Shown here piece by piece: positions 9,637-45,419 of a DNA stretch of 62,010 nucleotides; position 1 is the first letter of the stretch, and every line of letters begins with the position of its first letter. The notes under the pieces were generated by a model. The model ran no database searches, was not told the origin of the DNA, and saw only the letters and a list, made by a program, of their open reading frames with translations. A program made the translations under genes and the position numbers. Source of the DNA: Candidatus Micrarchaeia archaeon (lineage in GTDB: Archaea; Micrarchaeota; Micrarchaeia; Anstonellales; Bilamarchaeaceae); assembly GCA_033853355.1 (NCBI GenBank), contig JAWOLP010000003.1, positions 1 to 62,010 of the forward strand, read 5' to 3'.

Positions 9637-10110
9637 CTAGCCGGCCCCTATCAGCTTGTTGTAGACCTTCACCGCGAGATCCTCCTGCTCGGCCAGCTCG
9701 CCCTTCACGAAGACGCTGCGGGTGGCGTCGATGAATGTCAGGAACTTCTTCCCCTCCTTCTCCTCAAGTGAGAGGTAGCGGCGCTGCACCCATGCAGGGG
9801 CCGGAAGGCCGTGGTCAAAGCAGAACGAAGGCGAATCCTCCTCCTTGGAGGGAAACGGCTGCACGCTCAGCTCATCGAAGAACTCCAGCTTCTCGTTCAT
9901 TCCGCGCAGGAGGCGCGGGGGGAGCCTGAGCATGCGCTGGACAGACGGCTTGAGGGTGAAGCCCGCCTTCTCGGCCTCTTCCAGGGCCTCCTTCCTGCCT
10001 ATGGTCTCCGTCGCCCTCCGCGCCGGAAAGTGCAGCACAGCGTTCCGCTCCCTCTCGCCCTCCTTGTCATGGTTCCCGGCGGAACGCCTCCTCGAGCCTG
10101 CCATGCCCAC
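9637..10110 (-). CDS. Hypothetical protein, paralog of 43897-44364 (left border of the accessory locus)
   Basis: Basic N-terminus. The C-terminal block SVQPFPSKEEDSPSFCFDHGLPAPAWVQRRYLSLEEKEGKKFLTFIDATRSVFVKGEL aligns with SVQPFPYHDSDSPARCADSGSSPPSWVKTWYMAIIDEEGSREIVLFYRPKNVFVKCRL of the other copy. Confidence 0.6.
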   Translation of the reverse strand: MGMAGSRRRSAGNHDKEGERERNAVLHFPARRATETIGRKEALEEAEKAGFTLKPSVQRMLRLPPRLLRGMNEKLEFFDELSVQPFPSKEEDSPSFCFDHGLPAPAWVQRRYLSLEEKEGKKFLTFIDATRSVFVKGELAEQEDLAVKVYNKLIGAG

Positions 10111-10246
10111 ATTCCTCTCCGCAAATTTAAAAAGCGGAGCGAACGGCCATTTTGATCATATAGAAATCCGAATTACGACACCCCAACGGCCTCCCGGGGA
10201 AAACCAAACTTTAAATCCTGGGAGGCAGAAATCAACCCTGGTCTCT

Positions 10247-10885
10247 ATGCCGTCGAAAAATAAAAAAAGCGGAGAGGGGAAAAGGAAAGGCCAAACGCGG
10301 CCTTCCGCGCCCCGTATTAAAAAAGGTTCGCAGCAAAGGAAGACCATGCTCGAGAGGAAGGAAGGCGTCGTGATCCCGATCTCCAGGGCGAGGCAGGATC
10401 GCGGCTTCCGGGGAAAAGGGGAGCTGAACGAGCCACGGAGCGAGATCCCGAAGGAAACATGTTTCGCCGTCCTCGAATCCGAAAGCAGGGCGCAGCTGGG
10501 CGATTCCCTGAAGTCGCTTATGAACGTGCCGGCAAGGCTCTACGCGGTGCCTGCCGACGGCGCGGTCTCTTACTCGTCCGAACCGGAGAGGAGCATCGCG
10601 AAGATGGCGGGAGCGATCCTGCGCGGATTCCCGCTTCCGACGTCCCTGCCCGACTACGGCATCCACCTCTCAGTCCAGGGGAGCAGCCTATTCTGCACGC
10701 TCGTCGACCGGTCACGGAAGATAATCGTCCAGGCGGAGGTCAGCAGCCAGTATTCGGATTCCGGCTCCTGGAGCTCTTTCGAGTACGCCGTGAGGGACGC
10801 TGTGACGCAGGCCGAATCCATGCAGGCCCGGTCTGCGACTTTCGGCTACGTGATAAACAAGGGCGGCATAATCACGGTCGTCTGA
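10247..10885 (+). CDS. Hypothetical protein
   Basis: Only the 3' two-thirds of track ORF 9845-10885 is non-overlapping. The ATG at 10247 lies about 30 nt after a TATA-like CTTTAAATCC; an alternative ATG lies at 10346 (MLERKEGVV). No family recognised. Confidence 0.5.
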   Translation: MPSKNKKSGEGKRKGQTRPSAPRIKKGSQQRKTMLERKEGVVIPISRARQDRGFRGKGELNEPRSEIPKETCFAVLESESRAQLGDSLKSLMNVPARLYAVPADGAVSYSSEPERSIAKMAGAILRGFPLPTSLPDYGIHLSVQGSSLFCTLVDRSRKIIVQAEVSSQYSDSGSWSSFEYAVRDAVTQAESMQARSATFGYVINKGGIITVV

Positions 10886-10945
10886 ACCTTTCCGCCGTCG
10901 GAAGGCGCATCAACGGTTTTAAAGCGTGCCGTACATACTTATGAC

Positions 10946-11497
10946 ATGGCGAGAGACAGCTCGGGACGCGACAAGCTCACTATGGTCGTCAGGCAGCCGC
11001 TCGGCCCTTCGCCGGCGCCGCAGGCGAGGAACAACAAGCAGCCGCTTCCGGATTCGAATGTCAGGAAGCTGAGCCCCCAGGAAGTGCTTTCGAGCATCAG
11101 GGATTTCGCGTCGGGCTGGAACGACCGGGCGAGGGATGCCCTCGGCGTGAACTCGGATCTCAATTACATGCGCAACGACATCGCGGGCACGGTCATGTTC
11201 TCCAAGGAGAAGGATTTCGGCATCACCGGTGTCATGGCCGACATGGAGCACGGCCGCATATCCCGCCCATCGACAGAATACGGGATGCTCTTCTATTCCA
11301 ATGGCACTGGGGAATATATGGTGCTCGCGGACATGAGCCGCCGGATCGTGGTGAGGGAGCAGATAGTCAACTACCACGACAAGCCCCTCAAGAAGGACTG
11401 GGGGATCGTGGTGGAAGCCATCGACCGCGCCGAGAAGATGGCCAAGGCGAACCCGGGCAAAGTGGCAGTCTCCGACGGCTCGGTATTCCTCGTCTGA
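10946..11497 (+). CDS. Hypothetical protein
   Basis: 183-aa ORF with ordinary amino-acid composition. No family recognised. Confidence 0.55.
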   Translation: MARDSSGRDKLTMVVRQPLGPSPAPQARNNKQPLPDSNVRKLSPQEVLSSIRDFASGWNDRARDALGVNSDLNYMRNDIAGTVMFSKEKDFGITGVMADMEHGRISRPSTEYGMLFYSNGTGEYMVLADMSRRIVVREQIVNYHDKPLKKDWGIVVEAIDRAEKMAKANPGKVAVSDGSVFLV

Positions 11498-11599: not shown

Positions 11600-12322
11600 A
11601 TGGCCACACCGACCCATCGCTCCACGGCCCAGCTAGGGAGTCTGAAAGACGAGCGGAGCTTCCGGGCGGCCCTGATCTCGCTCGCTAAAAACGGGGATCC
11701 GACTCTGATATCCGAACTCTCCGAGAACCGGGCCATGATGGACACGCGGGACTCCCACAAGAAGACCCTGCTCATGATGGCCTCAGAGCGGGGCCATCTC
11801 GCCCTGGCCGGCTCCCTCCTCTCGATCGGCGCCGATCCGCGCGCGCTCGATGATCACCGCAACTCCGCCCTCATCCTCGCATCATTCGGCGGCCACGGCG
11901 ATGTGGCCAAGCTCCTCGCTCCCGTGTCGGAGATGGCCCAAAGAAACGGCTTCGGCTGGAACGGCCTGATGGGGGCGGCGGTCTCCGGTGACGTGGACCT
12001 GATCTCGTTCCTGGTCGCCAGGGGCGCAGATCCGAAAGATGCCGACGCTGGCGGAAGGACCCCGCTGATGAAAGCGGTGCGCTACAACCGGCTCGATGCC
12101 GTAAGGTTCCTGGCCCCGATCTCGCCGATAGACGCGGCCGACGTCGATGGCGACACCGCACTGCTCAAAGCCTGCCGCTACGGCCTTGCAGAGATAGCCC
12201 GCGTATTGAGGCTCCACGGGGCCGACCCTCTGGCGGAGGATCTCCGCGGCGAGAGCTGCATAAAGAAAGCCAGGAAACACGGCTTCCTCGAGCTCGCCGA
12301 GAGCCTGCTAAAGCCCCTTTAA
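11600..12322 (+). CDS. Ankyrin-repeat protein
   Basis: About 5-6 tandem ~33-aa ankyrin repeats, for example KKTLLMMASERGHLALAGSLLSIGADP, RNSALILASFGGHGDVAKLL, GRTPLMKAVRYNRLDAVRFL and GDTALLKACRYGLAEIARVLRLHGADP. Confidence 0.8.
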   Translation: MATPTHRSTAQLGSLKDERSFRAALISLAKNGDPTLISELSENRAMMDTRDSHKKTLLMMASERGHLALAGSLLSIGADPRALDDHRNSALILASFGGHGDVAKLLAPVSEMAQRNGFGWNGLMGAAVSGDVDLISFLVARGADPKDADAGGRTPLMKAVRYNRLDAVRFLAPISPIDAADVDGDTALLKACRYGLAEIARVLRLHGADPLAEDLRGESCIKKARKHGFLELAESLLKPL

Positions 12323-12673
12323 TGATTCCCGCACCGCCTTCACGAGTTCAGAATCCTGGCCGAAACGGAAGAAATCCACTTTCACTTTCTCCCCGTCCTT
12401 ATAGCTCACCCTGATCCTTCCATCCTGGGTGCTGATGCTCCATGTCCTGCCGCTGTGGCCGACCGAGAATCCTGCAACCGCGTCGGGATATTCCGCCAAT
12501 GCCTTCGAGTTGACCTTTTCGGCGATCGCCTGAGCCGCATCAACCTTGGCCTGCGGCCCGCCTTTTATCGGCGAGAGGTCTATCTCCATCGAAAATGTGG
12601 GCTTCAGCTTCTCCAATTCCTTCCGGATGTCCGGAGACGCCGTCCCCTCCGGCTTGCGCTCTTTCCTTTTCAT
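12308..12673 (-). CDS. Small hypothetical protein directly downstream of giant ORF 1
   Basis: 121 aa, starting 11 nt after the giant ORF stop on the same strand, so probably co-transcribed. It overlaps the convergent ankyrin gene by 15 nt. Confidence 0.6.
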   Translation of the reverse strand: MKRKERKPEGTASPDIRKELEKLKPTFSMEIDLSPIKGGPQAKVDAAQAIAEKVNSKALAEYPDAVAGFSVGHSGRTWSISTQDGRIRVSYKDGEKVKVDFFRFGQDSELVKAVRESLKGL

Positions 12674-12684
12674 TCACACCACTC

Positions 12685-15600: not shown

Positions 15601-18600
15601 TCCCCTTCCGCCGCCCTCCATCACCTGAAGCCCTACCAGGTCGCCTAAGTCGGCCAGGCGGGGCATCGGTTCGGTCACCGCTGTGATCCTTCCGGTCTGG
15701 CGGTCTATCGTGAGCGTGAACTCGACGGCATTCGCGCGCCGCTCCGGCGGCACTTCGCCCTCGCCGACCTGCACGACCCGCCCATTCGTGCGGTCGTAAT
15801 ATCCGCGGACCTCGAGCGGGCCGGTCCCGATGGCGTTGATGTTCTCGAGGCCCTTGATTATCCCGACTGCGTTCCCGACGGCCAGCTCGAAAGGCTCCCT
15901 CTCTCCGGTGAAATGGCCCCTGACGTATCCCCTCTGCCGGTCGTTGAGCGGCGCGGCCGTCAGCGCGCTCTCATAGGTCTGCGCGCTCATCGGATGGATC
16001 AGGTCGGAACCATGCACCTCTATCCGCCCCGGCGACGCGACAGGCGGAGCCCCTCCCATCCTGATAGTCCCTCCAGGGCCGCCTTGCGGCGGAACCGGCT
16101 GGGCTTGCCCAGGCGTGCCAGGGATCTCGCCAGGCGGAGGAGGCGGCGCGGAAGCACGGTTGATATTGCCCTGGCTGACATGCGGCTGCGGGTCGACTGG
16201 ATGGGGAGCGGCGACCGCATCGGCGGGAGCAGCCGGGTGCAGGTTCCCAGGCGCGGGCTGCGGCGGCGGGTTGTTCGGGCGGACGGCGTTCTCGCGGTCG
16301 AGTATCCATCCCCCTATCTCGACGAACTGGTTGTTCATGAACCCCTGCCCCGCGTGCATGAGGCCGTTGAAGACGGGCACCGGGCCGACCGCTGTCGAAT
16401 TTATCCCGGTCAGCTCGCTGAAGCCAGGATCCCCTCTGAGGATGCCGAGAGTGAAGACCTCTGGGGGCAGTTCCGTGCGGTTGGCGGCGAAAGTCGATGG
16501 AGGTATGTCCCTGCGCGCCCTGATCAGGGGGACGCCGGCCTCCTGAAGCTGGACGGCGAGAGGATCGTTCGCGGCGATGACGCCGACCCTCTTCACGACC
16601 GCCCCTCCCGCGCCTGTGTAATCTATCACCCCGACCCTCGGCCCGGCCTCCGGCGGGAGAGCTGCGACGATCTCCGGCGTGACCTGGAAGACCAGCATCT
16701 CCTCTCCGGGCCTGAACATGTTCAGGATCCCAGGATGGATGTTCGCGAGGTTGCTGCCGTAGGAGATCTCGTACGAAGGCCTGTTCTCGGAGCGTCCGTC
16801 ATCATAGATGACGAAGCTGATGGGGTCGCCTGACTGGGGCGAGTTGAACTGCGCTGCCCCGCCCGGGCTCCTGATCATCCCTATCTCGACTGGGCCGAGG
16901 GGGTACCCCATGCCCATGGGCTCTCCTGCGTGGGAGTTGAAGCGCCTCGTAATGTCGGCGCGGTATGTGGCATTGTTCCCGAATTCTGTCCAGAACCTCC
17001 GCCCGCCGGCCGCCATCCCGCCGTTGAAATCGCCGGTTATGCTTATGGCGCCGTGGGGATCCCTGCTGATCTGGACGTTCCCGAAGGCCTCGTGGACGAG
17101 GTCGGGGACGCTACGGCCGGTGACATGGCTGAGGACGTCGAACATCCTGTGGAGGTCGGTGTTCCCGAACCTGTGGTTCATGTTCCCGAACCAGTAGTTG
17201 CCGCCGATCTCCTGGGCCATGTACACGCCGGCCGCGTCGGTATCGATTCCGCCGACAGTCGGGTTCTCTATCCTGAGCGTGCCGTCAGGATCGCGGACTA
17301 CGTTGGTCCCCTCTCTCCTCATCTGGGCGATCTGTGCGTCGCTGAGGGGCTGGGTGATCTCGAGATCCATGACACGGAGGTTTATCTCATGGCGGTCCCA
17401 CAGCCCTATCGCGTACGAGCCGGTGAGCGTGAAGCCGAGCTCCTCCCAGAATCTCGCCCTCACCGCCTGGTCCGGCGATGTGAGAGTCCCCATCACCCTC
17501 TCGTAGAGCTGTATCTGCTGTGGAGTGAACCTGTCGATCATCTGCTGGGCCTGCGCCCTTTCCGCCTCGTTCGTGGAGGTCCTCAGCGTCTCGTATGCGC
17601 TGCGGAGCTCGAGGACCTGCCGGATGCCCATCTCGGCCCTCGCCCTCACCTCGATGTCTAGGTTCCCCCTCCTTATAGTCCCCCTGAAGTCGCCCATGCT
17701 CTCGAGGATGCCGTATCGCGTGCCCGTGCCGTCGGCCATCGTGTAGCGCATGTCGCCTTCCGCCGTGGCTGTGTGGATCTCGGGCGCAGGTATGCCGGTC
17801 GCGCGCGAGTATTCGGCTCCTGCGGCATCGGGCAGCAGGTTCTGCCTCTTCACGTAAAGCGTCCGCATCTCGGTCACGTTCTCGCGCACCCCGCCCGGCC
17901 GCTCGACCTGCCTCGTTACCTCGACCCTCACCTCGTATGCTCCTACCGCGCCGTTATGGAACTCGATAGAGTGTATCCGGCCCACGGCGTTCTCCCCGGG
18001 CGGATACATGCCGCGGATTATGTCCGCGACGTGCCCGGGCATGTCGCCGGACAACAGCATGCCGAAAAGGAAGTGGTCGTCCTCGGGCCTGTTGAAGCCG
18101 CGGTAGGGCTCCGATACCCAGCTGCGGTCCGGCATGTTCGCCCAGGCGAAGGGCTCGAGCTCTATGCCCAGCCGCCGGGCCAGCGCCCCGCGCGCCTCCT
18201 GGATGTTATTGGCGTTCGCATAAATCTGCGTGAGCTCGTTCCTTCCGATGCCATAGATCCTGCCTATGGCATCGCCCACGGGCCCGCGCGAGAGGCTGCC
18301 GAGTTCGTTCAGGTACGTGGCGCCTTCATGCAGGCCGCGCCTATGGAGCTCCCCTACGACCGCCTCCTGCTGCTCGGGTTGCAGCCTCGAAAACTCCTGG
18401 GCGACTATGTCGAGGTGGTTTGCGTCCATCGTGCTGAAATGGTCTATTATCATCCTGCCTGCCAGCGCGCCCGCGCGGTTCTCCAGTCCCTGGCTGCGCA
18501 TCTGCGCCAGGGTCTCCTGCTGCCTCTCGATCGGCATCCTGGCGAAATCCTCCTGCGCCTGCCGCACGCGGGCCGGGTTGCCGCTCCTGTACGCTTCCAC

Positions 18601-33394: not shown

Positions 33395-33401
33395 TTTCCG
33401 G

Positions 33402-33438: not shown

Positions 33439-33523
33439 TGATTCACGAAAAAACGTCCTGAAAGCCGGCCCTCTCCGGTTGCAGGCGGCGCGATCGCCGC
33501 GAGCCCGAAAATGACCGGTGAAT

Positions 33524-34381: not shown

Positions 34382-34391
34382 GCGTTTTTTG

Positions 34392-35428: not shown

Positions 35429-38400
35429 TTGGGAACCCCTAACATGAGGCCGGAAGAAGCTGCGAGAGATGCAGACGCGGCCATCGCGCAGCAGCTGCGC
35501 CCCCAGGCGCGCGCGGTCGTCCCCCAGCTCACCCCCTCCGGCTTCGCCTCGCGCGCGGACGAGCAGGTCGGCTCGCTCTCGCAGCACGCGTCCTCGCTCG
35601 GGCGCACGCTCCCCTCACGGATCACGGACGTCGGCGCATTCCTCGCCTCAGAGCCGCTGCGCTCGGCACGAGCGGGCCTGGAGCAGGGCATCGGCATGAT
35701 GCAGGGCACGGTCACCTCCAACCCGCCGCTCGATCCGTCGGTCTTCTTCCCGAACCGCCTGGAGCGGTCGGCCTTCCTCCGCGACGGCTCCCCATTCCTG
35801 ATCATCGACCCGGCCCACGACGCCCGGTTCGCCGACTTCCTGTCCGGGAGGAGCGGCTCGTACCGCGGAAGCGGGCGGGCGGAGTCTGAGTGGGTGGCCG
35901 CGCACGCGGCGGAGCTGGAGCGGCGGGGCATCCGGGTGGAGCGGGGCCAGGGCGACTCGTTCACGCTCACGAACGGCGCCTTCGACCGCTCGCTCTCGGG
36001 AGGCGTCCTCAGCGGGCCGGACTTCGAGCGGTTCATCGCGGCAGGGGTGCCCTCGATCAGCGGGGAGGATCCGGCCAAGGCGAGATGGCTCTCGGAGCAC
36101 GCGGACATCCTCATCGAGCACGGGATCGACGTGCAGGTCGAGGGGAACCGCTTCACGCTGCGGAACAGCGGATTCCGCACCATCGGAGTGGACCCTTCCC
36201 AGTTCGAGGGCAGCGGCTTCCGCGGCACCGCCTTCGACTCGTTCGTCGACGGCCGCGCCCCGACGTTCGAGGGCAACAACCTCGCCCAGGCCAGATGGAT
36301 AGCCGAGCGCCAGCAGCAGCTCATGCAGTCGGGGATACACGTCTACCTTTCCCTGAACCAGCGGGGGGAGCCCAGCGGGCGCTTCGTCCTCCAGAACACA
36401 GCCTTCCTGCCTCCATCGGCCGGCACGTCCCAGCGCGAGGCCCTCTCGAGGAGCCTCGACGACGCGCGGGCCGATATGGGGATGGCCGACACCTACTTCG
36501 CCCGGGCCGGGGAGCTGTGGCGGACCGGGAGGCCGCAGGATCAGCAGCGGGCGAGGGAGCTCGCGTCCGCCGGCATGCAGCTGATAGACCGGGCGCAGCG
36601 CCTCCTCGGCTCGGTCGCCGCGTATGTCGAGACCTCGAGGGTCGTCTATGACCGGCGCGCCGAGATCGAGTCCCTCCCGCCCGACGAGAAGCGCCGCTGC
36701 CTCTCGCTGATAGAGAACGCCGACGCCCTCATCGCGCAGAGCCGGACCGCGGACGACGCCGCGGCGCGCATCGAATACACGCGCCGCGCCGGTTTCCTCC
36801 TCCAGATGGTCGGCGCGACCCTCTATCTCCGCCAGACCGAAGGCATGCTCCCCCCGCAGGTCCGCACCGATGCCGCAGGCTTCCTCAGCTCGGCGATGGA
36901 CATCTATTCGCAGGGCACCTCCGATTCCCTCGAACGGGCGTCCTTCATGCTGGGCCAGGCGAACTCCTTCCTGACGTTCTCGATAGAGCGGGCCGGCATC
37001 CAGGCCCAGTACGACGAAGTCCGGAACCTCGACGCCTACGTGGACGTCACGAGGATGCCGCTATTCCAGACGTCCGGGCGCTTCGACGAGGAAAAGTTCC
37101 AGAGGCTCACCGGCGTGACGTACGCGCAGTACCGGGACGGCATACGCGGCCAGAGCCGGAGGGGGATCGCCACGGTGGCCGCGGCCCTCTACCGCCGCTC
37201 CCTCGACCATTACGACTCCGCGCTCGCGGAGATGCGTGGGCTGATCGCATACTCGGCCGCGAACGAGACGCCGGACAACGGCAGGGTCAGGGCGTCGCTG
37301 GAGACGATCCAGCGCGAGCACGAGATAGGCAGCCTCAACTTCGTCCGGACCGCGCAGCTGGATCCCCTGATATCGTCCGCCCGGACGCTGTCCTCGGTCG
37401 TCCAGCGCCTTCCGACCGAGCGCGACATCGGCGCCCTCTACATGAGCGCGGAAGGGTCGGCCGAGCTGCGCGACTCGCGCGCCGCGGCGATGCGGGCGTA
37501 CTCGCGCGAGCTCGGCACGATAAGCGCCGGCTTCCTCTACCTGCTCTCGGCCCAGAACTCCGAGGGGGCGGAGCGCGAGTCGCTTGAAGGCTCCGCGCGG
37601 GCGGTCCTCTCAAGGGCCGGGGCCGAGAACCAGGCATTCATGGACGCGGCCAACGCGTTCAACGACATGTTCAGCAAGACCTCCTCGTTCATCGCGCACG
37701 TGCAGGGCTCGCTCCTCGACGGGGAGACCGCGTCGCTCTATGGCGAAGAGCTCCTGAGGATCGGGGGCGACCACCTGCAGCAGCTCCTGCAGAACCCGGA
37801 CCTCTCCCGCCCGTATTTCCTGCGCGCCGTGACGGACCCGTCGTTCCTGCCCAGCCTCCCTCACCGCGACGAGCTGATGAGCAACGTCACGCGGCTCGGA
37901 AGGGGCGACCGCCAGAACGCGATCGCGATACTGACAGCCCTCTACGACCCGAACGCGACGCCCGAGCAGGTCCGCAACGCGCTCGGCCTGCTCTCCGCCG
38001 GCGAGATGACGATCGAGACCGCGGCGATGCCGCCCGGGGGGATGCCCCCCGAAGGGATGTCTCGCGAGGACCGCATGCGCGAGTACGGGACCGTCACCAG
38101 GGCTATGCCGGTCCTCGATGCGCTGCGCGAGGTGAACCCGGAGCTCGCGGCGCGGTTCGAGAGGATGCGGGAGCATCCGGAGAGCTTCTCGATCGACCAG
38201 CGCAGGGAGCTGATACTCGCTCTCGTGCGCATGGTCGGCGACGAGCCTGTGAACCGCGCCCTAGACCACATCGAGACATACCTCCGGGACACGTTCAGGG
38301 AAGTCTTCACGGCCCACGCGCAGGACCTCTACGACCGCGCGCGGAACATGGAGCCGAACGCGAGAGGCATGCAGGAAGACGCGAGGCTGATCCTCTCCCG

Positions 38401-41400
38401 CCTGCGGCCCAGCGACATCACGATAAACCGCAGCGGCGGAAGGACCACCGTCGAGCTCGCGGACCCATTGGCCCGCGACGCATACGCGAGGCTCATGGAC
38501 GGCGCCGCAGCCGTGCAGTCCATACCGGAGGAGATGGCGAGCCTCGTGCCCAGGCTGATGGAGAGGCTCGGTCCGGTCTCGCGCGAGGCCGCCACGCGCG
38601 TGGCGGACGCGGAGAGGATATACCAGGAGAGGGTCGACGAGGCCGAGGCGCGGAGAAGGACGATAATCGTCTGCGCGGTCATCGGCGGCCTCATCGCGGC
38701 GCCATTCACCGGCGGCATGAGCGTCTGGGCGGCTGTGGGGACCATAAGCCTGGGCGTCGGGATAGGGATGGGGATCCCCTCGGTCGCCTTCGCGGTGGAG
38801 GATTACGTGAAGGTCAGGGACGACCCGAATGCCACGCCCGAGCAGGTGTCCGCGGCCCGCAACCACATGTGGCGCGAGATCGGGTTCAACGCGGTGATGC
38901 TGCTCCCGGTCGTCGGCCAGGCCGGGCGGGCATGGGCCGTCGGCCGTGGGCTCTTCACGCTGGCGCGGATAGGGTACGGCCTCGAGATCGCCGGAGGCAT
39001 AGGCATGGTCGGCTTCGGCGCATACCAGACGTACGAGGGCGTCCAGATGATCCGGCATGGCGATACCGGCTGGGGGATATTCAACGCGGCCACCGGGGCG
39101 CTGTTCATGTTCGGAGGCGCCCATGCGGCGTACAGCGGCGCGCGGAGCTGGGGATCCCTCGGCAGGCTCGCGCCGGCCATGCTCGCTCCGGAGGCCATAG
39201 CCAGGGACGTCACAGCGCTGGAGGAAGGGGCGGCGGCTTTCCGGCGAGTGGCCGCGGGCGAGCAAATCTCGATCTCCGCCGACCGGCTCGCCGAGATCAA
39301 TGCGGCCGGCCGCAGGCTCAGGGACATGGTGCAGGCTGGGATGCGGCTCGAGCCGGCCCAGATGCAGGCCCTCAACGCGTACCGCGCCCTCATGGAGGTC
39401 CAGCCTGCCAGGGACCTGCGCACCTTGCGGACGATGAGCGAAGGCACCTCGTTCCGGCGGGCGGCGCGCGGGGCTTACGAGACGATCCTGCGGAGGAACC
39501 GGCTCGCCTCGACCGAGGAATTCGTCGATGCGATAGCGGCGAGGGACCGCCTGCGCGCGCTGGGCCGCATCCGGCCGAACACGCCGGCCGAGGCCGAAGC
39601 CCTCAGGAACTTCGACCGCTACGTCGCGGCCCAGGCGAACACGGACGCCCAGGCGCTCTCCTCGTTCGGCCAGAGGGTGAGGGCGGGGGGCGCTCCGCTC
39701 AGCGTGGGCGAAATCGCGGCGGCGCGCACGGCATACGACCGGCTCTCGCTCGGCGTGCAGGAGGCCGGGACGGCGACGCCCCAGCAGGTCGCCGCGATGC
39801 GGGCCTACCGCACCGCGATGAGCGAGGTCGGCCGCTCGAGGATGGCGCAGGACGCGCAGGGGCTCGCCTCGGGGATAGCCCCCGCGATCGAGGCGACGAC
39901 CGACTCGCAGGAGATCGCGCGCTCGGTCATACGGGCGAGGCTCCTCCGCGGCGACGGCGAGTTCCTCATCCCAGGCGAGACGATCGCGGGCTACCGGCTG
40001 AGCGTGGGCGACATAGAGGGCGAGATACGCGCCCTGGGCCGGGATTTCGCCCTCAGCGGGAATCCCCAGCAGGTGCTCACGATCGCGGGCGACAAGCAGC
40101 TCCTCAACCAGATAAACGACGTGTTCGGCAGGGATGGCGGCAACGTCTCGCTGTCGCTCTACCGCTCGGCGATCCAGGACGGGGTCGGCTCGTCCATCCG
40201 CGGCATGCGGGGGGCCCGCGCCTTCTTCGTGCGCTCCGCCGAGAGCGGGGACGAGGTCACCGTCTACATAATGGGCCGCAACCTGCGCGGGCTCGACCCG
40301 GCCGCGGTGTCCAGGTCGCTCGAGGAGGCGACCGGATCCGTGGCGGCTCAGGCGGCGGCCGCGCGGATAAGGGGCGACGTCACCCTCGCGGACGCGTTCG
40401 AGAGGTGGACGGGCAGCAGGGACGTCCGGCTTTTCGTGAGCGGGGATTTCAGGTTCTCCTCAGTCGAGGATTTCACGCTCGCCGCTTCGATGGACGAGAG
40501 CTCGCTGACCAGGATGGTGACGCATGCCGAGGAGATCCCGACCTACCGGCGCGTGGCGGACTCGCTCAACCTGAGCCCTGACGCGGTCGCTGCCGAGATA
40601 CGCATGCCGGCCGGGACCACGAGCGCGATAACCGATGCCGAAGTGAGGAGGAACGCGGCCGCGCTGGCCGGAGGGGAAGAGAGCTTCAGCCGCCTCCCGC
40701 CCGCCGACCAGACCGCATACCTGCGCGAGGCCCGCAGCAGGATAACGTTCCAGTCGGCCGACGCGGTGGAGTTCAGGTTCACGATCACCGATCCGGCGGC
40801 CCAGGCGGTCGTGCGGCAGGAGATGGCGACGGCCACCAGGAAAGCCTACGCCGAAGTGGCCACGAACTCGTTCGCTGGCACCGGGCTGAACACCTTCCTG
40901 GGCCACCCCCGCGCGAACGCGATCTACAATGCGCGCAACGACGCGATAGCGTCGGTGGTGCAGGCCGGGCTTCCGGACGGCGTGAGGATCAGGACGTTCG
41001 GCAATTTCGGGCCGGTCCTCATCGAAGGCGGCACGCCGGTCCAGCGCCTGTCGGTCATGCGGAGCATCGAGCAGGCGACGCGGGCCAACCTCAGGTCGCT
41101 GGCTGCGGGAGGGAGGAGCCTCGGGCTCGACGTCCAGGTGGTCGGCGTGAGCATAAGCGCGCCGATGAACTACGATTCCATAAGCGCCGCGCTCATCTCC
41201 AGCCGTCTGGGCATCGGCCACACCGTGAGCCTGCCCTCCCTGGAGAGCGCGACTTTCGGGATAGGGTTCATCCGCGGGCCTCGGGGGCTGTCCGATTTCG
41301 CCCACCTCGACCGCCTCAGCGACCGCATCTACGGCGACCTGATGGCGGCCGTGCCGGAGGCTTCGAGGGCCAGGTACCCCAGCATGCAGGAGTTCGCCGA

Positions 41401-43858
41401 GATACGCTCGATCGCGCGGGCGAACCCGTCCATCCGGAACGCGGAGGCGATGCTCGCCTACCTACGGGCGAACAACCCCTCCCTTTTCGGGAAATACCTC
41501 GCTTTCGTCGAAGAGCAGGGCGGGGAGTTCGCAGCCAGGGCCAGGACGGCGATCGGGCTGCCCATACCGCAGGCGACGCCGGTGACCGTCCTCGCCAGGG
41601 AAGCGAGGCCGCTCTCGACGCGCACGCCGGCCGAGATCCAGGCCGACCTCGAGCCGCGCATACGCGCGCAGATGGACGGCGTGAGCGGCGTGCAGAGGAC
41701 GCAGGTCACGGTGACGAGGGACCGGATAAGCATCCAGAACGAGGCCGGAGAGAGCGTGCCTGCGGAGCGGACCCGCGCGCACGTCGAGCTCTTCGCGCGC
41801 GACGGCAGATCCCTGGGCGTGGCGGAATTCGAGGTGGTCCCTGCCGCCGACGGCGAGGGCGTCGCGTTCTTCCACCGCGTGGAGCTCGATCCGTCGGTCC
41901 GCGGCCAGAGGATCGCGGAGCGGCTCAGCGACGCGATGGAGGATTCGCTGCGGGGCATGGGCATACATCGCTACGTCCTCCGCGCGGAGCGCGATGGCCT
42001 GACCTACTGGCCCTCACAAGGATACCAATGGGTCGGGAACGAAGGCGGGCTAAGGGCTGTCGACCGGACCGCGAACGCCCCCCTCACATGGGAAGGCGGC
42101 TCGCCGATCCTCGATTACCAGGCCGGCGGAAGGACCCAGCCGGGCATGTTCCGCAGGTGGCTCAGCACGCCCGAGGGCCAGGCGTGGCGGCCGCCTCACA
42201 ACCAGTCGGTCGAGGAGTTCATGCGGCTGGCCGGCGACAACCTCGCCAACTACCCTTACGATTTCACGCTCTACCTCGGAAGCCAGGGAGTGGACAACAT
42301 CCAGATGAAGTTCGTGAGGTGGGCATTCGAGACCGGCTGGGCGCCCCACGCGAGATTCGATCCATGGTTTTTCCTGCGGTTCAACGGCAACAACCCCCAA
42401 TTCTATCCGGACGAGTTCCTGCTTTTCCTGGGCACCAGGGAAAACAGCATCCGCGGCATCCAGCAGAGGTTCGTGGAATGGGCCTCCCACAACAACTGGC
42501 GCAGCGCCACCGGCGAGGCCGCAGACGCGTTCGCCGCCCGCGCGGGCTACCGCCTCAGCCTCTATCCGCCGGAATTCCGGCTCTCCATAGCGAGGGAGGT
42601 GCCGTACACCAGGCCGGCCGTGATCACCGAACTGCCCGCGGACCTGCACGGGATGCCGGCCGAGTTCGCGCATCTGCGCGTTGACCCGGTCCATGGAAGG
42701 CAGCCGGTCCGCCTCCTGCGGCCAATCGATTCGGTCAACGGCTCCTCGGGGGTCGTCTACCTGGGCGAGATGGAATTCGAGGGACGTACGGTGCAGGTGG
42801 CGGTCAAGATATACCGCGACGCGATCGACTCCAGCATACGCTCCACAGTGAATTACACGACCAGGCTTTACCAGCGCTACCTCGCCGCACGGGCCGCGAA
42901 TCCAGCGAACTGGGCCGCCGCAGCGCAGATGAGCCGCGAGGACACGGAGATCATCGGAGAGGTGCTCAGGAGGATGACGGGCGGCCGCACGGCCGAGCAG
43001 GCGATTTTCGAGGCGGCGACCGTGAGGGAATGGGGACAGTCCAGGGCCGCCAAGCTGTTCGGCGAAGTTCAGCGCGCGGAGACGGCCGCACGCCTCGGCA
43101 TCGGGCCGAGGGTGATGGGCCTTGTCGACGTGGGCAACGGGAACATGGCGTTCGCGATGGAGCGGGTCGTCGGAGTCGACCGCGCGGAGATGTCCGTGGA
43201 CCAGCTGTCCAGGATAGCCAGGCAGAACGGCATAAGCCTGCCCGAGCAGCTGGACCGGACGATGAGATCGCTCGCGGAAGCGGAATCAGCCCTCGCCAGG
43301 GACGAGGGCAGGGTGGACGCGTCGGGGGTGCGCGTCGGGTACGACGTGGGAGACTTCCAGTTCGCCGTCCTGACCCGCAGGCAGTTCATAAACGGCAGGT
43401 GGCGCGAGCCGGGCGATGTCGTCGTATGGGACGTGAGCGGCTTGAAAGAGATCCAGGTGCCGGACGAGGCCGCGGTGGGCCGGCGCGTTTCCGCGAGGGT
43501 CGTCGAGGAGAGGGCGAGCCTCGAGGGGAATCTCGGAGCGACATACTTCAGGGAAAACATCGGCGCGAGGGGCACCGCGCTGCAGGATCCGTACCTCCAG
43601 GCACTCGTGCTATCCGCGACCGGCAGGCCGGCTTTCGACGCCGACGCGTTCCGGGCCTTCGTGGAGATCGGCAGCAGCCAGCAGGAGAGGCAGCGGGCGG
43701 TCAGCGCGATAATCACCGACACTGCCAGGACGGACCCGGCACGCGCGGCCCGGATGTTCCAGGCCCTCCGGCGGGCGGAGGCCGAGTCCGGAGTCAGGAT
43801 AATACCGCAAAACGTCACCTTCGCGCAGATTTCGTCCTCGCGAGCTCCGGCCCCCTGA
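35429..43858 (+). CDS. Giant (2,809 aa) multi-domain membrane protein with GGDEF-like, GNAT-like and kinase-like modules
   Basis: An uninterrupted 8,430-nt ORF. The TTG at 35429 has a GAGGTG Shine-Dalgarno element 6 nt upstream; the first ATG is at 35444. Domain evidence is given in separate entries. Confidence 0.9.
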   Translation: MGTPNMRPEEAARDADAAIAQQLRPQARAVVPQLTPSGFASRADEQVGSLSQHASSLGRTLPSRITDVGAFLASEPLRSARAGLEQGIGMMQGTVTSNPPLDPSVFFPNRLERSAFLRDGSPFLIIDPAHDARFADFLSGRSGSYRGSGRAESEWVAAHAAELERRGIRVERGQGDSFTLTNGAFDRSLSGGVLSGPDFERFIAAGVPSISGEDPAKARWLSEHADILIEHGIDVQVEGNRFTLRNSGFRTIGVDPSQFEGSGFRGTAFDSFVDGRAPTFEGNNLAQARWIAERQQQLMQSGIHVYLSLNQRGEPSGRFVLQNTAFLPPSAGTSQREALSRSLDDARADMGMADTYFARAGELWRTGRPQDQQRARELASAGMQLIDRAQRLLGSVAAYVETSRVVYDRRAEIESLPPDEKRRCLSLIENADALIAQSRTADDAAARIEYTRRAGFLLQMVGATLYLRQTEGMLPPQVRTDAAGFLSSAMDIYSQGTSDSLERASFMLGQANSFLTFSIERAGIQAQYDEVRNLDAYVDVTRMPLFQTSGRFDEEKFQRLTGVTYAQYRDGIRGQSRRGIATVAAALYRRSLDHYDSALAEMRGLIAYSAANETPDNGRVRASLETIQREHEIGSLNFVRTAQLDPLISSARTLSSVVQRLPTERDIGALYMSAEGSAELRDSRAAAMRAYSRELGTISAGFLYLLSAQNSEGAERESLEGSARAVLSRAGAENQAFMDAANAFNDMFSKTSSFIAHVQGSLLDGETASLYGEELLRIGGDHLQQLLQNPDLSRPYFLRAVTDPSFLPSLPHRDELMSNVTRLGRGDRQNAIAILTALYDPNATPEQVRNALGLLSAGEMTIETAAMPPGGMPPEGMSREDRMREYGTVTRAMPVLDALREVNPELAARFERMREHPESFSIDQRRELILALVRMVGDEPVNRALDHIETYLRDTFREVFTAHAQDLYDRARNMEPNARGMQEDARLILSRLRPSDITINRSGGRTTVELADPLARDAYARLMDGAAAVQSIPEEMASLVPRLMERLGPVSREAATRVADAERIYQERVDEAEARRRTIIVCAVIGGLIAAPFTGGMSVWAAVGTISLGVGIGMGIPSVAFAVEDYVKVRDDPNATPEQVSAARNHMWREIGFNAVMLLPVVGQAGRAWAVGRGLFTLARIGYGLEIAGGIGMVGFGAYQTYEGVQMIRHGDTGWGIFNAATGALFMFGGAHAAYSGARSWGSLGRLAPAMLAPEAIARDVTALEEGAAAFRRVAAGEQISISADRLAEINAAGRRLRDMVQAGMRLEPAQMQALNAYRALMEVQPARDLRTLRTMSEGTSFRRAARGAYETILRRNRLASTEEFVDAIAARDRLRALGRIRPNTPAEAEALRNFDRYVAAQANTDAQALSSFGQRVRAGGAPLSVGEIAAARTAYDRLSLGVQEAGTATPQQVAAMRAYRTAMSEVGRSRMAQDAQGLASGIAPAIEATTDSQEIARSVIRARLLRGDGEFLIPGETIAGYRLSVGDIEGEIRALGRDFALSGNPQQVLTIAGDKQLLNQINDVFGRDGGNVSLSLYRSAIQDGVGSSIRGMRGARAFFVRSAESGDEVTVYIMGRNLRGLDPAAVSRSLEEATGSVAAQAAAARIRGDVTLADAFERWTGSRDVRLFVSGDFRFSSVEDFTLAASMDESSLTRMVTHAEEIPTYRRVADSLNLSPDAVAAEIRMPAGTTSAITDAEVRRNAAALAGGEESFSRLPPADQTAYLREARSRITFQSADAVEFRFTITDPAAQAVVRQEMATATRKAYAEVATNSFAGTGLNTFLGHPRANAIYNARNDAIASVVQAGLPDGVRIRTFGNFGPVLIEGGTPVQRLSVMRSIEQATRANLRSLAAGGRSLGLDVQVVGVSISAPMNYDSISAALISSRLGIGHTVSLPSLESATFGIGFIRGPRGLSDFAHLDRLSDRIYGDLMAAVPEASRARYPSMQEFAEIRSIARANPSIRNAEAMLAYLRANNPSLFGKYLAFVEEQGGEFAARARTAIGLPIPQATPVTVLAREARPLSTRTPAEIQADLEPRIRAQMDGVSGVQRTQVTVTRDRISIQNEAGESVPAERTRAHVELFARDGRSLGVAEFEVVPAADGEGVAFFHRVELDPSVRGQRIAERLSDAMEDSLRGMGIHRYVLRAERDGLTYWPSQGYQWVGNEGGLRAVDRTANAPLTWEGGSPILDYQAGGRTQPGMFRRWLSTPEGQAWRPPHNQSVEEFMRLAGDNLANYPYDFTLYLGSQGVDNIQMKFVRWAFETGWAPHARFDPWFFLRFNGNNPQFYPDEFLLFLGTRENSIRGIQQRFVEWASHNNWRSATGEAADAFAARAGYRLSLYPPEFRLSIAREVPYTRPAVITELPADLHGMPAEFAHLRVDPVHGRQPVRLLRPIDSVNGSSGVVYLGEMEFEGRTVQVAVKIYRDAIDSSIRSTVNYTTRLYQRYLAARAANPANWAAAAQMSREDTEIIGEVLRRMTGGRTAEQAIFEAATVREWGQSRAAKLFGEVQRAETAARLGIGPRVMGLVDVGNGNMAFAMERVVGVDRAEMSVDQLSRIARQNGISLPEQLDRTMRSLAEAESALARDEGRVDASGVRVGYDVGDFQFAVLTRRQFINGRWREPGDVVVWDVSGLKEIQVPDEAAVGRRVSARVVEERASLEGNLGATYFRENIGARGTALQDPYLQALVLSATGRPAFDADAFRAFVEIGSSQQERQRAVSAIITDTARTDPARAARMFQALRRAEAESGVRIIPQNVTFAQISSSRAPAP
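35822..36405 (+). repeat. Three tandem ~55-aa protein repeats at the N-terminus of giant ORF 2
   Basis: ARFADFLSGRSGSYRGSGRAESEWVAAHAAELERRGIRVERGQGDSFTLTNGAF / PDFERFIAAGVPSISGEDPAKARWLSEHADILIEHGIDVQVEGNRFTLRNSGF / TAFDSFVDGRAPTFEGNNLAQARWIAERQQQLMQSGIHVYL...GRFVLQNTAF. Confidence 0.7.
38650..39170 (+). other. Transmembrane module of giant ORF 2 (AAPxTGGxS motif)
   Basis: RRRTIIVCAVIGGLIAAPFTGGMSVWAAVGTISLGVGIGMGIPSVAF ... FNAVMLLPVVGQAG ... YGLEIAGGIGMVGFGAY ... GIFNAATGALFMFGGAHAAY, about 4-6 hydrophobic helices. Confidence 0.65.
39955..40450 (+). other. GGDEF/palm-type nucleotide-cyclase-like module (degenerate signature SGDEV)
   Basis: LTIAGDKQLLNQINDVFGRDGGNVSL (40075-40146) matches the D-x5/6-IND-x-FG-x-D-x-G-[DN]-x-x-L block of GGDEF domains. 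FFVRSAESGDEVTVYIMG (40223-40276) occupies the R-x-GG[DE]EF-x-h-h-h position. Confidence 0.4.
41650..42040 (+). other. GNAT-like acetyltransferase module
   Basis: GVAFFHRVELDPSVRGQRIAERLSDAMEDSLRGMGIHRYVLRAERDGLTYWPSQGYQW fits GNAT motif A (R/Q-x-x-G-x-G/A followed by a helix) and motif B. Confidence 0.45.
42710..43460 (+). other. Protein-kinase-like (PKL) domain of giant ORF 2, homologous to K1 of giant ORF 1
   Basis: GSSGVVYLGEMEFEGRTVQVAVKIYRD, NMAFAMERVVG, VGDFQFAVL and GDVVVWDVSGL are colinear with VAVKVFKD / AIAMDLLPG / HDFQFIV / GDVVLMDAGG. Confidence 0.55.
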
Positions 43859-43896
43859 CCGGCAGCAATTTTAACGTAGCCGCAGATAAGCTGGCC

Positions 43897-44364
43897 ATGG
43901 AGAAATCCGCAAGAAAAGGGAGCAAAAGCGCGGACATCGCCCGGCTGCCGATCACGCACAAGGAGAAGACGGACCCGGGCCATTCGTTCCTCTCGCGCGA
44001 GGAGCTGCTCTCTTTCCTGAAAGGGGCCGGATTCGTTCCCACCCCCCGGCTCGGGGGGCAGCTGAAGATCCCATCCTATGTGGTGCGCGGCAAGTACGAG
44101 AGGATCGAGTTCTCGGACACACGGAGCGTCCAGCCCTTCCCTTACCACGACTCGGATTCACCGGCGCGCTGCGCGGATAGCGGCTCGTCGCCGCCTAGCT
44201 GGGTGAAGACCTGGTACATGGCGATCATCGATGAGGAAGGCTCGCGCGAGATCGTCCTCTTCTACCGCCCCAAGAACGTCTTCGTGAAATGCAGGCTCGA
44301 CCAGGCCGAGAATGTCATACCGGCCGAGATGTACCGGCGGACGATCGAAGGCAGCCAAGACTGA
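43897..44364 (+). CDS. Hypothetical protein, paralog of 9637-10110 (right side of the accessory locus)
   Basis: The ATG at 43897 lies inside the longer shadow-extended track ORF 43030-44364. It is 155 aa with the shared SVQPFP...DSP...P(S/A)WV...VFVK block and starts 38 nt after the giant ORF 2 stop. Confidence 0.65.
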   Translation: MEKSARKGSKSADIARLPITHKEKTDPGHSFLSREELLSFLKGAGFVPTPRLGGQLKIPSYVVRGKYERIEFSDTRSVQPFPYHDSDSPARCADSGSSPPSWVKTWYMAIIDEEGSREIVLFYRPKNVFVKCRLDQAENVIPAEMYRRTIEGSQD

Positions 44365-44366
44365 GC

Positions 44367-45419
44367 TCACTCGCCCTCGGTCGCCGCGCCCTGCGCGACC
44401 CTGAGCTGGAAGATTTTTTTCGGGGCGCTGCTTATGTACCCGGGCCCCCTCGGATGGACGGCATGGCCAGCCGGCTGGGGTGGCGCCTCCTGGCGGACCT
44501 GGCGATGGGCCTCATGCGTCCCAGCCTCAGGATAGACGGGCGCTGCGGCTGGCTGATGGAACGCCGCCATGAGCCGATGCTCGCCGGAGAAATGGCGCAC
44601 ATCCGAGTCCCCGGCTGAGTGTTCCATCGCGTTGCGGCCTTCCACAGCTATCTGCGGGACGTTGGAATGGGAAAATGAAGGAGCCTGGGCTTGGCGGTGG
44701 AGGGGGTAAGGCAGGAGGTAGGGCATTTCGTGGAGCGGAGCGGCCTCAGGCTCGCGCGCATGGACGGCGCAGACGATCCTTGGCGCCGCATGCTCCTCTA
44801 TCACCTGCGGAAGATGAACGACTGGGGGTTTCGGAACGATGGGTCCGGGGGCCGGGACATCCTGCGGCACGCCCTCCTCGCCTGCGTGACTTAAGTGGGC
44901 GGGGGGCTCGCGCGTGGGTGCCGCTGCTTGCGATCCCTCGTGCGGCTGGGGCGGGCGGGGCTCGGCTGACCGGATCGCGCCGATCACAGCCTCCTCGCGG
45001 GGCTCCAAGCCGGGCATTCTCCGCTCCGGCTCGCCGTGGGCGGCCATCAAAGCGTGCATCGCTTCCGGATGCTCCTTCCCAGAGGCTGTCCTGAAGTGAG
45101 CTTTCCTCGGAGCCTTGAGCTCCTCCATCCTCAGCGCCATGAACGGCGCGCTCTGGCGCGCAGGCGCCTCGACCATGGGTAGATCCCTGCCGGTGAGCCG
45201 GTAATAGTTCCAGCTCCTCCCCTCCACGGCCTGGGAGGCCCGCAGGTATCCTTTGCCGCGAGCGCTCTTGTTGTAAGCGTAACCCGAGAAAAGGAGGGGG
45301 TTCTTGCGCGATAGCTTGAACCTCTTCCCTTCCAGCGGGTCCACGACTCGCTGGGGCTCAGGCGTCCTGCGCTTGGCCTCGCGCTGGAGCGGCTTAGTCC
45401 TGAAAGTGAGCTCTCTCAT
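44367..45419 (-). CDS. Hypothetical His/Pro-rich protein
   Basis: The longest ORF in this span. It has a basic N-terminal domain and a C-terminal half rich in H, P and A. No family recognised; the coding call rests on length only. Confidence 0.45.
   Translation of the reverse strand: MRELTFRTKPLQREAKRRTPEPQRVVDPLEGKRFKLSRKNPLLFSGYAYNKSARGKGYLRASQAVEGRSWNYYRLTGRDLPMVEAPARQSAPFMALRMEELKAPRKAHFRTASGKEHPEAMHALMAAHGEPERRMPGLEPREEAVIGAIRSAEPRPPQPHEGSQAAAPTREPPAHLSHAGEEGVPQDVPAPGPIVPKPPVVHLPQVIEEHAAPRIVCAVHAREPEAAPLHEMPYLLPYPLHRQAQAPSFSHSNVPQIAVEGRNAMEHSAGDSDVRHFSGEHRLMAAFHQPAAAPVYPEAGTHEAHRQVRQEAPPQPAGHAVHPRGPGYISSAPKKIFQLRVAQGAATEGE

Follow-up and report, generated by a model that had tools for sequence, protein, structure and literature searches.

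What do two giant proteins, each encoded directly behind a small gene, do in an archaeon with a very small genome? The question is raised by a locus at 9637-45419 of contig JAWOLP010000003.1 (assembly GCA_033853355.1, Candidatus Micrarchaeia archaeon), whose positions 1 to 62,010 are the stretch of DNA analyzed here (62,010 nucleotides; "the window"). A reading made earlier from the letters alone (the sequence-only reading) had described the locus as a divergent twin cassette. We find that its unit is a syntenic module specific to Micrarchaeota, in which a gene for a partner protein of about 110 amino acids (aa) lies directly upstream of a gene for a modular giant of 2,000-7,300 aa. The giants are quite possibly effectors directed at a host cell, a reading that is weighed below against several others.

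A partner-giant module conserved in Micrarchaeota

The map of open reading frames (ORFs) at 9637-45419 matches the earlier description, with two arms diverging from 34382-34446. On the left arm, partner p118 (33038-33394, minus strand), a member of the ~110-aa family of conserved three-helix-bundle proteins, is followed by giant G1 (12685-33033, minus strand; 6782 aa, 20349 nt), which starts 4 nt past the p118 stop. On the right arm, partner p111 (35084-35419, plus strand) precedes giant G2 (35429-43858, plus strand; 8430 nt), a protein of 2809 aa if read from the TTG at 35429 or of 2804 aa from the ATG at 35444. Together the two giant genes take up 20349 + 8430 = 28779 nt.

Alignments of the partner were used to scan one genome per GTDB species, metagenomes and viral contigs. 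The GTDB-species scan identified 10 partner loci, all in metagenome-assembled genomes of Micrarchaeota/Micrarchaeia; the metagenomes contributed 6 further loci and the viral contigs none. In the related loci (L numbers; P numbers denote further family members), a giant ORF begins within 0-25 nt of the partner in L002/L012, L004/L008, L006, L009, L010, L013, L014, L016, L017, L019, L022 and the P0017 contig, and the pair is present in every related locus with sufficient sequence, in Micrarchaeota only. The giants measure 7058 aa in L002/L012, 5597 aa in the P0017 contig, 2185 aa in L004/L008 and 2230 aa in L017; those of L010, L013, L014, L019 and L022 are open-ended at the sequence edge and have at least 3300 aa. 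In L015/L024 (10001-11288; marine Micrarchaeota, GC 0.375) a partner-like gene is followed only by a 351-aa ORF, and the giant seems to be fragmented or different.

Gene order around the pair is conserved as well. proS and recJ lie upstream of it in the P0017 contig, L006, L007 and L017, and rtcA lies downstream in L004/L008 and L017. The simplest layout is that of L017, which consists of proS, DUF350, recJ, three small genes, the partner, the 2230-aa giant, a 104-aa ORF and rtcA. The arm made up of p118, G1 and the small ORF o121 is collinear with this layout, and the arm made up of o210, p111, G2 and o155 looks like an added, inverted cassette between recJ and p118. Each of the other ~20 loci shows one partner, in a view bounded downstream by 10-kb flanks. 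The divergent twin cassette is therefore present here, at confirmed coordinates, and is particular to the lineage of the window; as a conserved unit it was rejected, since other loci, among them L017 with its identical flanks, have a single cassette. Two other expectations of the sequence-only reading were met more fully: the partner-giant pair is syntenic in related genomes, often between the same housekeeping genes, and the organism, for which it had raised a small genome as a speculation, is a small-genome Micrarchaeota (DPANN) archaeon; all 10 genome matches of the partner are from Micrarchaeota too.

The two partners are themselves related (38% identity, E 3e-25). Homologues of p118 form 39 clusters (40-65% identity), of which one bears the label Candidatus Micrarchaeota, and the invariant positions of the family alignment (A1) include E, A, W, L, F, I and C. 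The AlphaFold2 (AF2) model of p118 (pLDDT 86) is an antiparallel three-helix bundle, with helices at 30-60, 66-94 and 99-117 and a disordered, Lys-rich N-terminal tail; a Foldseek search with this confident model returned generic helical bundles only, with E of at least 0.2. p111 is a deep paralogue: its identity to the p118-type partners is 26-37%, and theirs to p118 is 42-64% (P0041 is an outlier at 38%). The closest relative of p111 is P0041, at 45.5% identity, and P0041 itself precedes a giant of at least 2469 aa. That p111 has a relative of its own and is distant from the p118 type indicates that the partner duplication is old, in keeping with the ancient duplication that had been proposed. 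The partners (~55-65% identity) are far more conserved than the N-terminal regions of the giants (~27-33%).

The giants as genuine, resident genes

High-GC DNA yields many long ORFs on both strands, and ORFs of this length might be spurious or the product of a chimeric assembly. A second NCBI assembly, made independently (GCA_037933065.1, contig JBAIWP0100189122.1), spans 25444-46247 of the window (20.8 kb) at 99.9% identity and is collinear with it, with 20 mismatches, 0 gaps and no frameshift. All of the mismatches fall within G1, G2 or p111, and 17 of the 20 are synonymous (5 of 7 in G1, 11 of 12 in G2). The predominance of synonymous changes and the lack of insertions or deletions indicate purifying selection on the giant reading frames and argue that the giants are neither frameshifted nor chimeric, a check that the earlier reading had called for. 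In addition, homologous giants occur in genomes with a GC content of 0.48-0.65, and an exhaustive HMMER search (see below) recovers full-length relatives. We therefore count an artefact as refuted.

It had been noted by eye that the GC content of the locus is no different from that of the core genome. This does not hold for total GC, which is 0.65-0.70 in the giants and 0.58-0.62 in the flanks, while the GC content of third codon positions (GC3) is the same (0.85-0.90 in the giants and 0.72-0.89 in neighbours). Because GC3 is normal, the extra GC of the giants is attributable to their amino-acid composition, namely the content of Ala, Arg, Gly and Pro, and a foreign origin on the grounds of raised GC was rejected. 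The locus does not resemble a mobile element or viral island: its synteny is conserved, the partner has no relatives on viral contigs, no PHROG profile matched, and GC3 is like that of the neighbours. The sequence-only reading had seen no integrase, transposase or flanking tRNA. Features of a mobile element are indeed lacking, but a tRNA-Val gene (CAC; 50612-50684, minus strand) lies 5 kb to the right of the locus; it is the only tRNA/Rfam match of the window, and nothing there suggested an integration site. With the synteny between proS-recJ and rtcA in other Micrarchaeota, the view that the genes are resident and not recently acquired stands: the locus is chromosomally resident, old and not mobile.

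Modular architecture of the giants

Curated libraries (Pfam, with a threshold of E <= 0.01 for kinase families on the giants, NCBIfam, PADLOC and PHROGs) were searched with the giants, their relatives and all small ORFs, and only GNAT, HEAT and Ank families matched. None of the PADLOC anti-phage defence models matched G1 or G2, and phmmer searches of both giants against the PDB gave nothing useful. In a word-indexed homologue search (G2; G1 aa 2700-3950) low-complexity candidates predominated and only near-identical sequences were returned, so that no deep alignments were available for structure prediction. Exhaustive HMMER searching of 1.84 billion representative proteins with G1 aa 4800-5999 identified 35 relatives, mostly giants of 2,000-7,300 aa. 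G1 is 27-33% identical, over ~2400 aa, to the giants that follow the partner in L010, L012 and L014. The family comparison shows the giants to be fast-evolving, modular mosaics in which the enzyme-like modules of the C-terminal part vary in order and copy number, and so supports the multi-enzyme-like modular layout that had been proposed from the letters.

The N-terminal ~200 aa, which start with the motif AAExIL..P, are the sole region common to all giant types. In G1 this region (aa 20-250; 32284-32976, minus strand) is 27-31% identical by blastp to L004g/L008, L006 and L017g, and it is a candidate docking region for the partner. A long Ala/Arg/Glu-rich region, taken to be helical, comes next. 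It is followed by a Gly/Ala-rich hydrophobic module, which in G1 (aa 1953-2215; 26389-27177, minus strand) has about 4 segments with Kyte-Doolittle peaks of 1.7-1.8. This module aligns across 15 giants and lies in the middle of the protein in most of them, near residue 2000 in long giants and at ~900-1100 in short ones. The corresponding module of G2 (aa 1049-1310; 38573-39358, plus strand; Kyte-Doolittle peak 2.05) has AAPFTGG and HGDTGW motifs in common with G1 (AAPxTGG); its match to the family profile of this transmembrane (TM) module is weak (hhalign E 5.6e-4, probability 30%). No N-terminal hydrophobic signal was seen in the giants by Kyte-Doolittle analysis or by inspection of the sequences.

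A conserved N-terminus ahead of shuffled, variable C-terminal modules, together with rapid evolution, would also suit a weapon used between archaea and resembling polymorphic toxins, in which an N-terminal trafficking region and the partner would deliver toxic C-terminal enzymes, with o121 and o155/o157 as immunity proteins. There is a small ORF directly after each giant: o121 (12308-12673, minus strand), which is Lys-rich and lies 12 nt downstream of G1, and o155 (43897-44364, plus strand), downstream of G2. The latter is a paralogue of o157 at the left edge of the locus (9637-10110, minus strand; 34% identity, E 3e-25), and their family recurs beside giants elsewhere. However, o121 has no homologue in related loci and no Pfam or PHROG match, and the o157-like genes of L007, L014 and L019 lie upstream of the giant and on the opposite strand. 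Neither arrays of spare toxin-immunity cassettes nor, in the library scans, any known toxin, Rhs/YD, LXG, DUF4157 or immunity family was found. The modules, moreover, are of signalling-type enzymes rather than nucleases or deaminases, and the system occupies a single fixed chromosomal position. We regard a polymorphic-toxin-like weapon as improbable.

Enzyme-like modules

One module, K1, resembles a protein kinase. In G1 it spans aa 2723-3140 (23614-24867, minus strand) and reads GSTAGVW...VAVK2836...DFQF...VVLMDAGG; the K1-type module of G2 spans aa 2381-2795 (42569-43813, plus strand), with VAVK, DFQF and VVVWDVSG. The two are recognizably related (G2 2406-2672 against G1 2772-3010; 24% identity, blastp E 1.7e-5), and 5 family members all have, without variation, the motifs GSxxxV(W/Y), VAVK, DFQF and GDVVxxD. 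A Gly-rich loop, the lysine of a beta3 VAxK, a catalytic-loop Asp and a metal-binding Asp are all present and the catalytic-loop Asn is absent, which would make K1 an atypical protein-kinase-like module. No curated kinase profile (Pfam Pkinase, APH, RIO and others) matched at E <= 0.01, and no PDB sequence matched. With a low-confidence AF2 model of K1 (pLDDT 53, pTM 0.46), the top 50 Foldseek matches in the PDB were all protein kinases or pseudokinase domains of the kinase family, at weak scores (E 3e-3 to 2e-2, probability up to 0.99, TM 0.2-0.3).

K1 of G1 is 73.6% identical to that of the L010 giant, as against 31% for the N-terminal part. The same is seen more widely: K1 is 70-75% identical (L010, P0056, P0067, P0042) between giants that are otherwise ~30% identical, and it is also found in giants with normal lysine content. 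Such identity may reflect either much stronger constraint or recent exchange of the module by recombination.

Two further modules of G1, K2 (aa 3565-3964; 21142-22341, minus strand) and its paralogue K3 (aa 5004-5435; 16729-18024, minus strand), carry a kinase-like signature at the level of motifs: a G-loop, FVK3613, DRYRRN and IDTD in K2, and YVK5062, WDRHEIN and GIDTD in K3. Giants of the family have 1-3 copies of the K2/K3 type. In an alignment of 21 divergent copies (A6) the loop Gly, D182, N187, D208 and D210 are invariant and K49 is present in 90%. The DRHxxN loop, a DFG-like Asp and the beta3 Lys stand in the order expected of a kinase, and on these motifs K2/K3 may have a catalytic core like that of PI3/4-kinases or of protein kinases. 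Pfam searches of the 21 members at E <= 10 found no kinase family (including PF00454), profiles built from 5 and 21 sequences had no match in the PDB, and hhalign detected no relationship between K1 and K2/K3 (E 0.18). Locus L014 (1-6894, 10304-20299) contains two giants in tandem, with o157-like and o183-like genes between them; the upstream giant has normal lysine content and K2, K3 and K1 in a different order, and the downstream giant is lysine-poor and G1-like, with a partner directly ahead of it. Five copies of the motif E(E/G)(V/T)TTPxR (G1 aa 3188, 3205, 4062, 4189 and 4206; 20413-23470) lie in Pro/Gly-rich linkers on either side of K2. Four copies are present in the lysine-normal giant P0044 and one in P0048, and the motif may be a processing or phospho-acceptor site.

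G2 carries enzyme-like modules of other kinds. The core of a GNAT domain (aa 2122-2184; 41792-41980, plus strand) matches PF00583 at E 2.6e-4 (21.7 bits, against a gathering cut-off of 20.7) over profile positions 38-98 only; this is the sole above-threshold curated match in the giants. Ahead of it lies a GGDEF-like (palm) module (aa ~1508-1900; 39950-41128, plus strand) with the motif series GDKxxLNxxN...G(D/N)..L..Y(R)...GDE and a degenerate second copy. The L008 and L017 giants, of ~2200 aa, share this region at 25-27% identity. PF00990 (GGDEF) is the top Pfam match in 3 of 5 members, below threshold (E 0.005-0.2), and 8 of the 14 weak matches of the module's profile in the PDB are diguanylate cyclases (PleD, DosC and others; E 0.45-1.2). 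We tentatively assign aa ~1508-1700 to a GGDEF/nucleotidyl-cyclase palm domain. Between GNAT and K1 (aa ~2200-2380; 42000-42560), about 3 tandem repeats of ~45 aa, YP.(D/E)F.L.LG...FV.WA...W, are visible by eye in the translation.

G1 and G2 overlap little beyond the K1 module, the weak TM motif and their overall layout, and the first 1500 aa of G2 have no match in the compared family set. The giants had been said to share a kinase-like domain, a TM module and a short motif; the kinase-like region and the AAPxTGG motif are indeed common to both, and the TM module is weakly supported.

Depletion of lysine and cysteine

Only 24 of the 6782 residues of G1 (0.35%) and 12 of the 2804 residues of G2 (0.43%) are lysine, as against 6.6% overall in 16 neighbour proteins and 11-13% in the partners; binomial P values against the 6.6% background are 5e-161 for G1 and 7e-65 for G2. 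The ratio K/(K+R) is 0.03-0.04 in the giants and 0.54 in the neighbours, and because K+R is steady at 11-14% across giants, arginine appears to have taken the place of lysine. We considered a genome-wide, GC-driven shift from Lys to Arg and rejected it. The giant of L002 (GC ~0.50) has 2 Lys in 3332 aa beside 14 neighbours with 3.7-17% Lys, that of L022 (GC 0.48) has 0.06% Lys, and the 351-aa ORF behind the partner in L015/L024 (GC 0.375) has 0.57%. The same depletion at GC 0.48-0.50, beside Lys-rich neighbours, cannot be explained by base composition. Lysine content is bimodal across the family: members have either 0.08-0.9% or 4.6-12%, apart from a few at 1.5%. Cysteine is scarce in every giant, whatever its lysine content (0-0.36%; one has 0 in 4987 aa; 2 residues each in G1 and G2), compared with 1.0% in the background. 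Both depletions are thus specific to these proteins, and that of lysine is independent of GC.

Of the 24 lysines of G1, K2836 (VAVK), K3613 (FVK) and K5062 (YVK) are kept in the lysine-poor relatives P0056, P0048 and P0053, and most other Lys positions of G1 are not. Such retention of predicted catalytic lysines would be expected of active kinase modules in a protein under selection against lysine elsewhere. The same residues bear on the idea that the giants are mainly structural, as fibrous envelope, attachment or cytoskeleton-like proteins whose "enzyme" motifs are degenerate remnants. About 2000 aa that are Ala/Arg/Glu-rich, presumably helical and free of detectable domains would fit such a protein, and giant structural surface proteins are known from other DPANN archaea (PMC10266531). 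Degenerate remnants, however, would hardly be expected to keep catalytic-type residues invariant in 21 divergent K2/K3 copies, to hold three predicted catalytic lysines through a nearly complete purge of lysine, or to preserve K1 at high identity in otherwise divergent giants. The giants also have neither adhesion or Ig-like domains nor a signal peptide, and a mainly structural role seems to us very improbable.

Comparison with known systems

The closest analogue in the literature is the SPEARE-type giants of Nanohaloarchaeota, which are likewise very large, lineage-specific proteins of DPANN archaea. According to PMC10266531 (and Hamm et al. 2019 as cited there), these are membrane-associated proteins of DPANN episymbionts, 5,000-9,400 aa long, with a proposed role in host interaction, and their genes are among the few organism-specific rearrangements between otherwise collinear genomes. 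SPEARE proteins are acidic, carry a Sec signal peptide and combine Ig-like and beta-propeller ectodomains with a VirB4/TraG-like ATPase (PMC10266531). G1 and G2, in contrast, have no hydrophobic N-terminus and no Pfam domains of the SPEARE type (Ig-like, beta-propeller, VirB4/TraG). What the giants described here have instead are kinase-like, GNAT and GGDEF-like modules and a small partner of their own, and a good number of them are lysine-free.

Two bacterial systems offer a likeness of layout. MARTX and large clostridial toxins are single huge polypeptides with a long N-terminus, a hydrophobic insertion region and an array of effectors that varies between strains. The likeness is one of logic only: the system described here is archaeal, no homology was found, and the Pfam scan of the giants and flanks identified no RTX/CROP repeats, cysteine-protease autoprocessing domain or genes of a type I secretion system. 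LXG toxins of the type VIIb secretion system have a small helical Lap/WXG100-like partner upstream, a helical N-terminus, a variable enzymatic C-terminus and small ORFs downstream. Here too the likeness is one of logic only. Neither LXG nor WXG100 domains nor an FtsK/EssC-like ATPase were matched by Pfam in the giants, small ORFs or other proteins of the window. In place of a helix-turn-helix hairpin the partner has a three-helix bundle and a Lys-rich, disordered tail, and the giants are 10-30 times larger than LXG toxins, and archaeal.

The depletion of lysine recalls the A chains of ER-translocating AB toxins (ricin, cholera, pertussis), in which an extreme bias of Arg over Lys is confined to the translocated enzymatic polypeptide and protects it against ubiquitin-dependent degradation, and in which one of the few leftover lysines, in cholera toxin A1, is needed for optimal enzymatic activity (PMC4030972). 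The A chains are 20-30 kDa, target eukaryotes and evade ubiquitin, whereas the giants reach 7,300 aa and belong to an archaeon with putative prokaryote targets.

Our literature search found no description of the giant family, of the partner or of lysine-free archaeal giant proteins, only the SPEARE work and reviews of dark matter. The sequence-only reading had known of no described system with this architecture, and none that fits was found in the profile, PDB, PADLOC and literature searches. The partner-giant system thus lies outside the described kinds, with a function that we infer.

A possible role at the host membrane

We tentatively read the giants as partner-assisted, membrane-inserting, host-directed effector platforms, with which the earlier idea of a signalling or effector scaffold is compatible. 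The partner would bind the conserved giant N-terminus as a chaperone or targeting adaptor, a role suggested by the tight coupling of the two genes, the higher conservation of the partner and the fact that no other region is universal among the giants. The hydrophobic module would insert into the membrane where symbiont and host are in contact, and the enzyme modules would modify targets on the far (host) side of it. Replacement of Lys by Arg, with the predicted catalytic lysines spared, and the lack of cysteine would adapt the giant for translocation, and may also shield it, in the cytoplasm of another cell, from tagging, acylation or proteolysis aimed at lysine. Paucity of cysteine is typical of exported proteins and of substrates exported unfolded. 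Along with it, rapid divergence and shuffling of modules, the resemblance of the lysine purge to that of AB-toxin A chains (PMC4030972) and the episymbiotic lifestyle of DPANN archaea all favour the effector reading.

A more specific form of this proposal would have the lysine- and cysteine-free giants put into or through the membrane of an archaeal host, and the purge of lysine directed against a lysine-directed system of that host, such as SAMP/Urm1 tagging with the proteasome, lysine acylation or Lys-specific proteases. The giants would then be a prokaryote-versus-prokaryote counterpart of AB-toxin A chains, of up to ~7,000 residues and with a dedicated three-helix chaperone. We think this version unlikely.

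Several points weigh against a role as host-directed effectors. The giants have no signal peptide, and no secretion machinery was recognized in the window. A protein that lacks a signal peptide and has an even number of hydrophobic segments could just as well be anchored in the membrane of the Micrarchaeota cell, with its two ends in the cytoplasm. Lysine content is normal (4.6-12%) in many members of the family, among them L014a, which carries K1-K3, so that avoidance of lysine is not required for the basic function of the family. The roles suggested for K2/K3, the GGDEF-like module and the partner come from motifs, sub-threshold matches and gene position, and the model of K1 is of low confidence (pLDDT 53). 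Export, processing and host contact of the giants are likewise read from sequence features and should be considered putative, as is the lysine-directed tagging system of the host.

Some of these points would suit a platform that works in the Micrarchaeota cell itself, with the central hydrophobic hairpins (~4 segments, an even number) as anchor, both arms in the cytoplasm and the kinases, GNAT and nucleotide cyclase signalling or organizing there. The partner would be a stabilizing subunit, and lysine would be avoided to prevent self-modification by the giant's own activities, for example GNAT. The position of the locus among housekeeping genes with conserved synteny, the GNAT domain of G2 and the nearby HEAT and ankyrin scaffold genes would be consistent with this. 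Yet identities of 27-33%, compared with 81-82% for ProS, and the shuffling of modules, both seen between close lineages, would be unusual for a housekeeping scaffold, the paucity of cysteine throughout the family is more typical of exported proteins, giants of the G1 type are lysine-free without a recognizable lysine-modifying module, and the HEAT and ankyrin genes are not conserved in other loci. A scaffold of this kind, directed at the cell itself, is in our view somewhat unlikely.

Other features of the locus

The ORF sizes and coordinates, the 28,779 nt in giant genes, the HEAT and ankyrin genes, the flanking rtcA (left) and recJ-like and proS genes (right), and the paralogy of the partners and of the edge ORFs, all of which the sequence-only reading had picked out, are borne out by the searches and annotation. 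The first gene of the right arm is o210 (34447-35079, plus strand), 4 nt ahead of p111, which has no Pfam or PHROG match and was not found in related loci. The HEAT-repeat gene (33524-34435, minus strand; Pfam HEAT_2 E 5.3e-8; NCBI gene start 34381; gene call also in L001) and the ankyrin-repeat gene (11600-12322, plus strand; Pfam Ank_2 E 2e-42) also lack homologues in related loci. The families of o157/o155 and of o183 (10946-11497, plus strand) are different in this respect: they are found again next to the partner and giant in L007, L014 and L019, where homologues of this conserved accessory ORF o183, 28-36% identical, lie beside o157-like genes, and HEAT, Ank, o210 and o121 do not recur. 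Between o155 and recJ lies a Pro-rich ORF, o350 (44367-45419, minus strand), with no Pfam or PHROG family match, a weak match in L009 and a gene call also in L001.

The 129-nt, AT-rich spacer upstream of p118 (33395-33523, minus strand) contains the TATA-like boxes TATTTAAA and TATATAATATAT and is the putative promoter of the p118 arm. The 65-nt divergent region (34382-34446) is also AT-rich and promoter-like, with boxes TTTAAATA and TTTAAAAA. A 7-nt inverted repeat, TGTTAGC-gctt-GCTAACA (34416-34434), lies between the HEAT gene and o210 and may be the binding site of a regulator.

The left flank encodes DUF373, signal peptidase I, Ham1, ribosomal protein S3Ae and rtcA, and the right flank archaeal RecJ, ProS, tRNA-Val, an S-layer-like protein and a methyltransferase. 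Another ORF that weakly matches HEAT_2 (E 9e-4) is found 5 kb to the left of the locus (4120-4950, minus strand). On the right, a 548-aa ORF (51100-52746, plus strand) with 12.6% lysine begins MAKAKGKASAKK and has no Pfam or NCBIfam match.

Implications

To our knowledge, the means by which DPANN archaea manipulate their hosts are largely unknown, and the candidate genes are mostly lineage-specific dark matter. Here, ~29 kb of a very small genome is devoted to two proteins, as part of a module that is phylum-wide and syntenic. The module offers experimental handles in its conserved small partner, in three kinase-like sites that hold practically the only conserved lysines of 6,782 residues, and in a putative membrane-insertion module. 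The purge of lysine is a rare, clean signature of selection, and it suggests that the giant works in a compartment that holds a hazard directed at lysine. Should this be the host cell, the partner and giant would represent the first effector-delivery logic described for Micrarchaeota, and scanning for depletion of Lys and Cys would be a new route to translocated proteins in uncultured symbionts.

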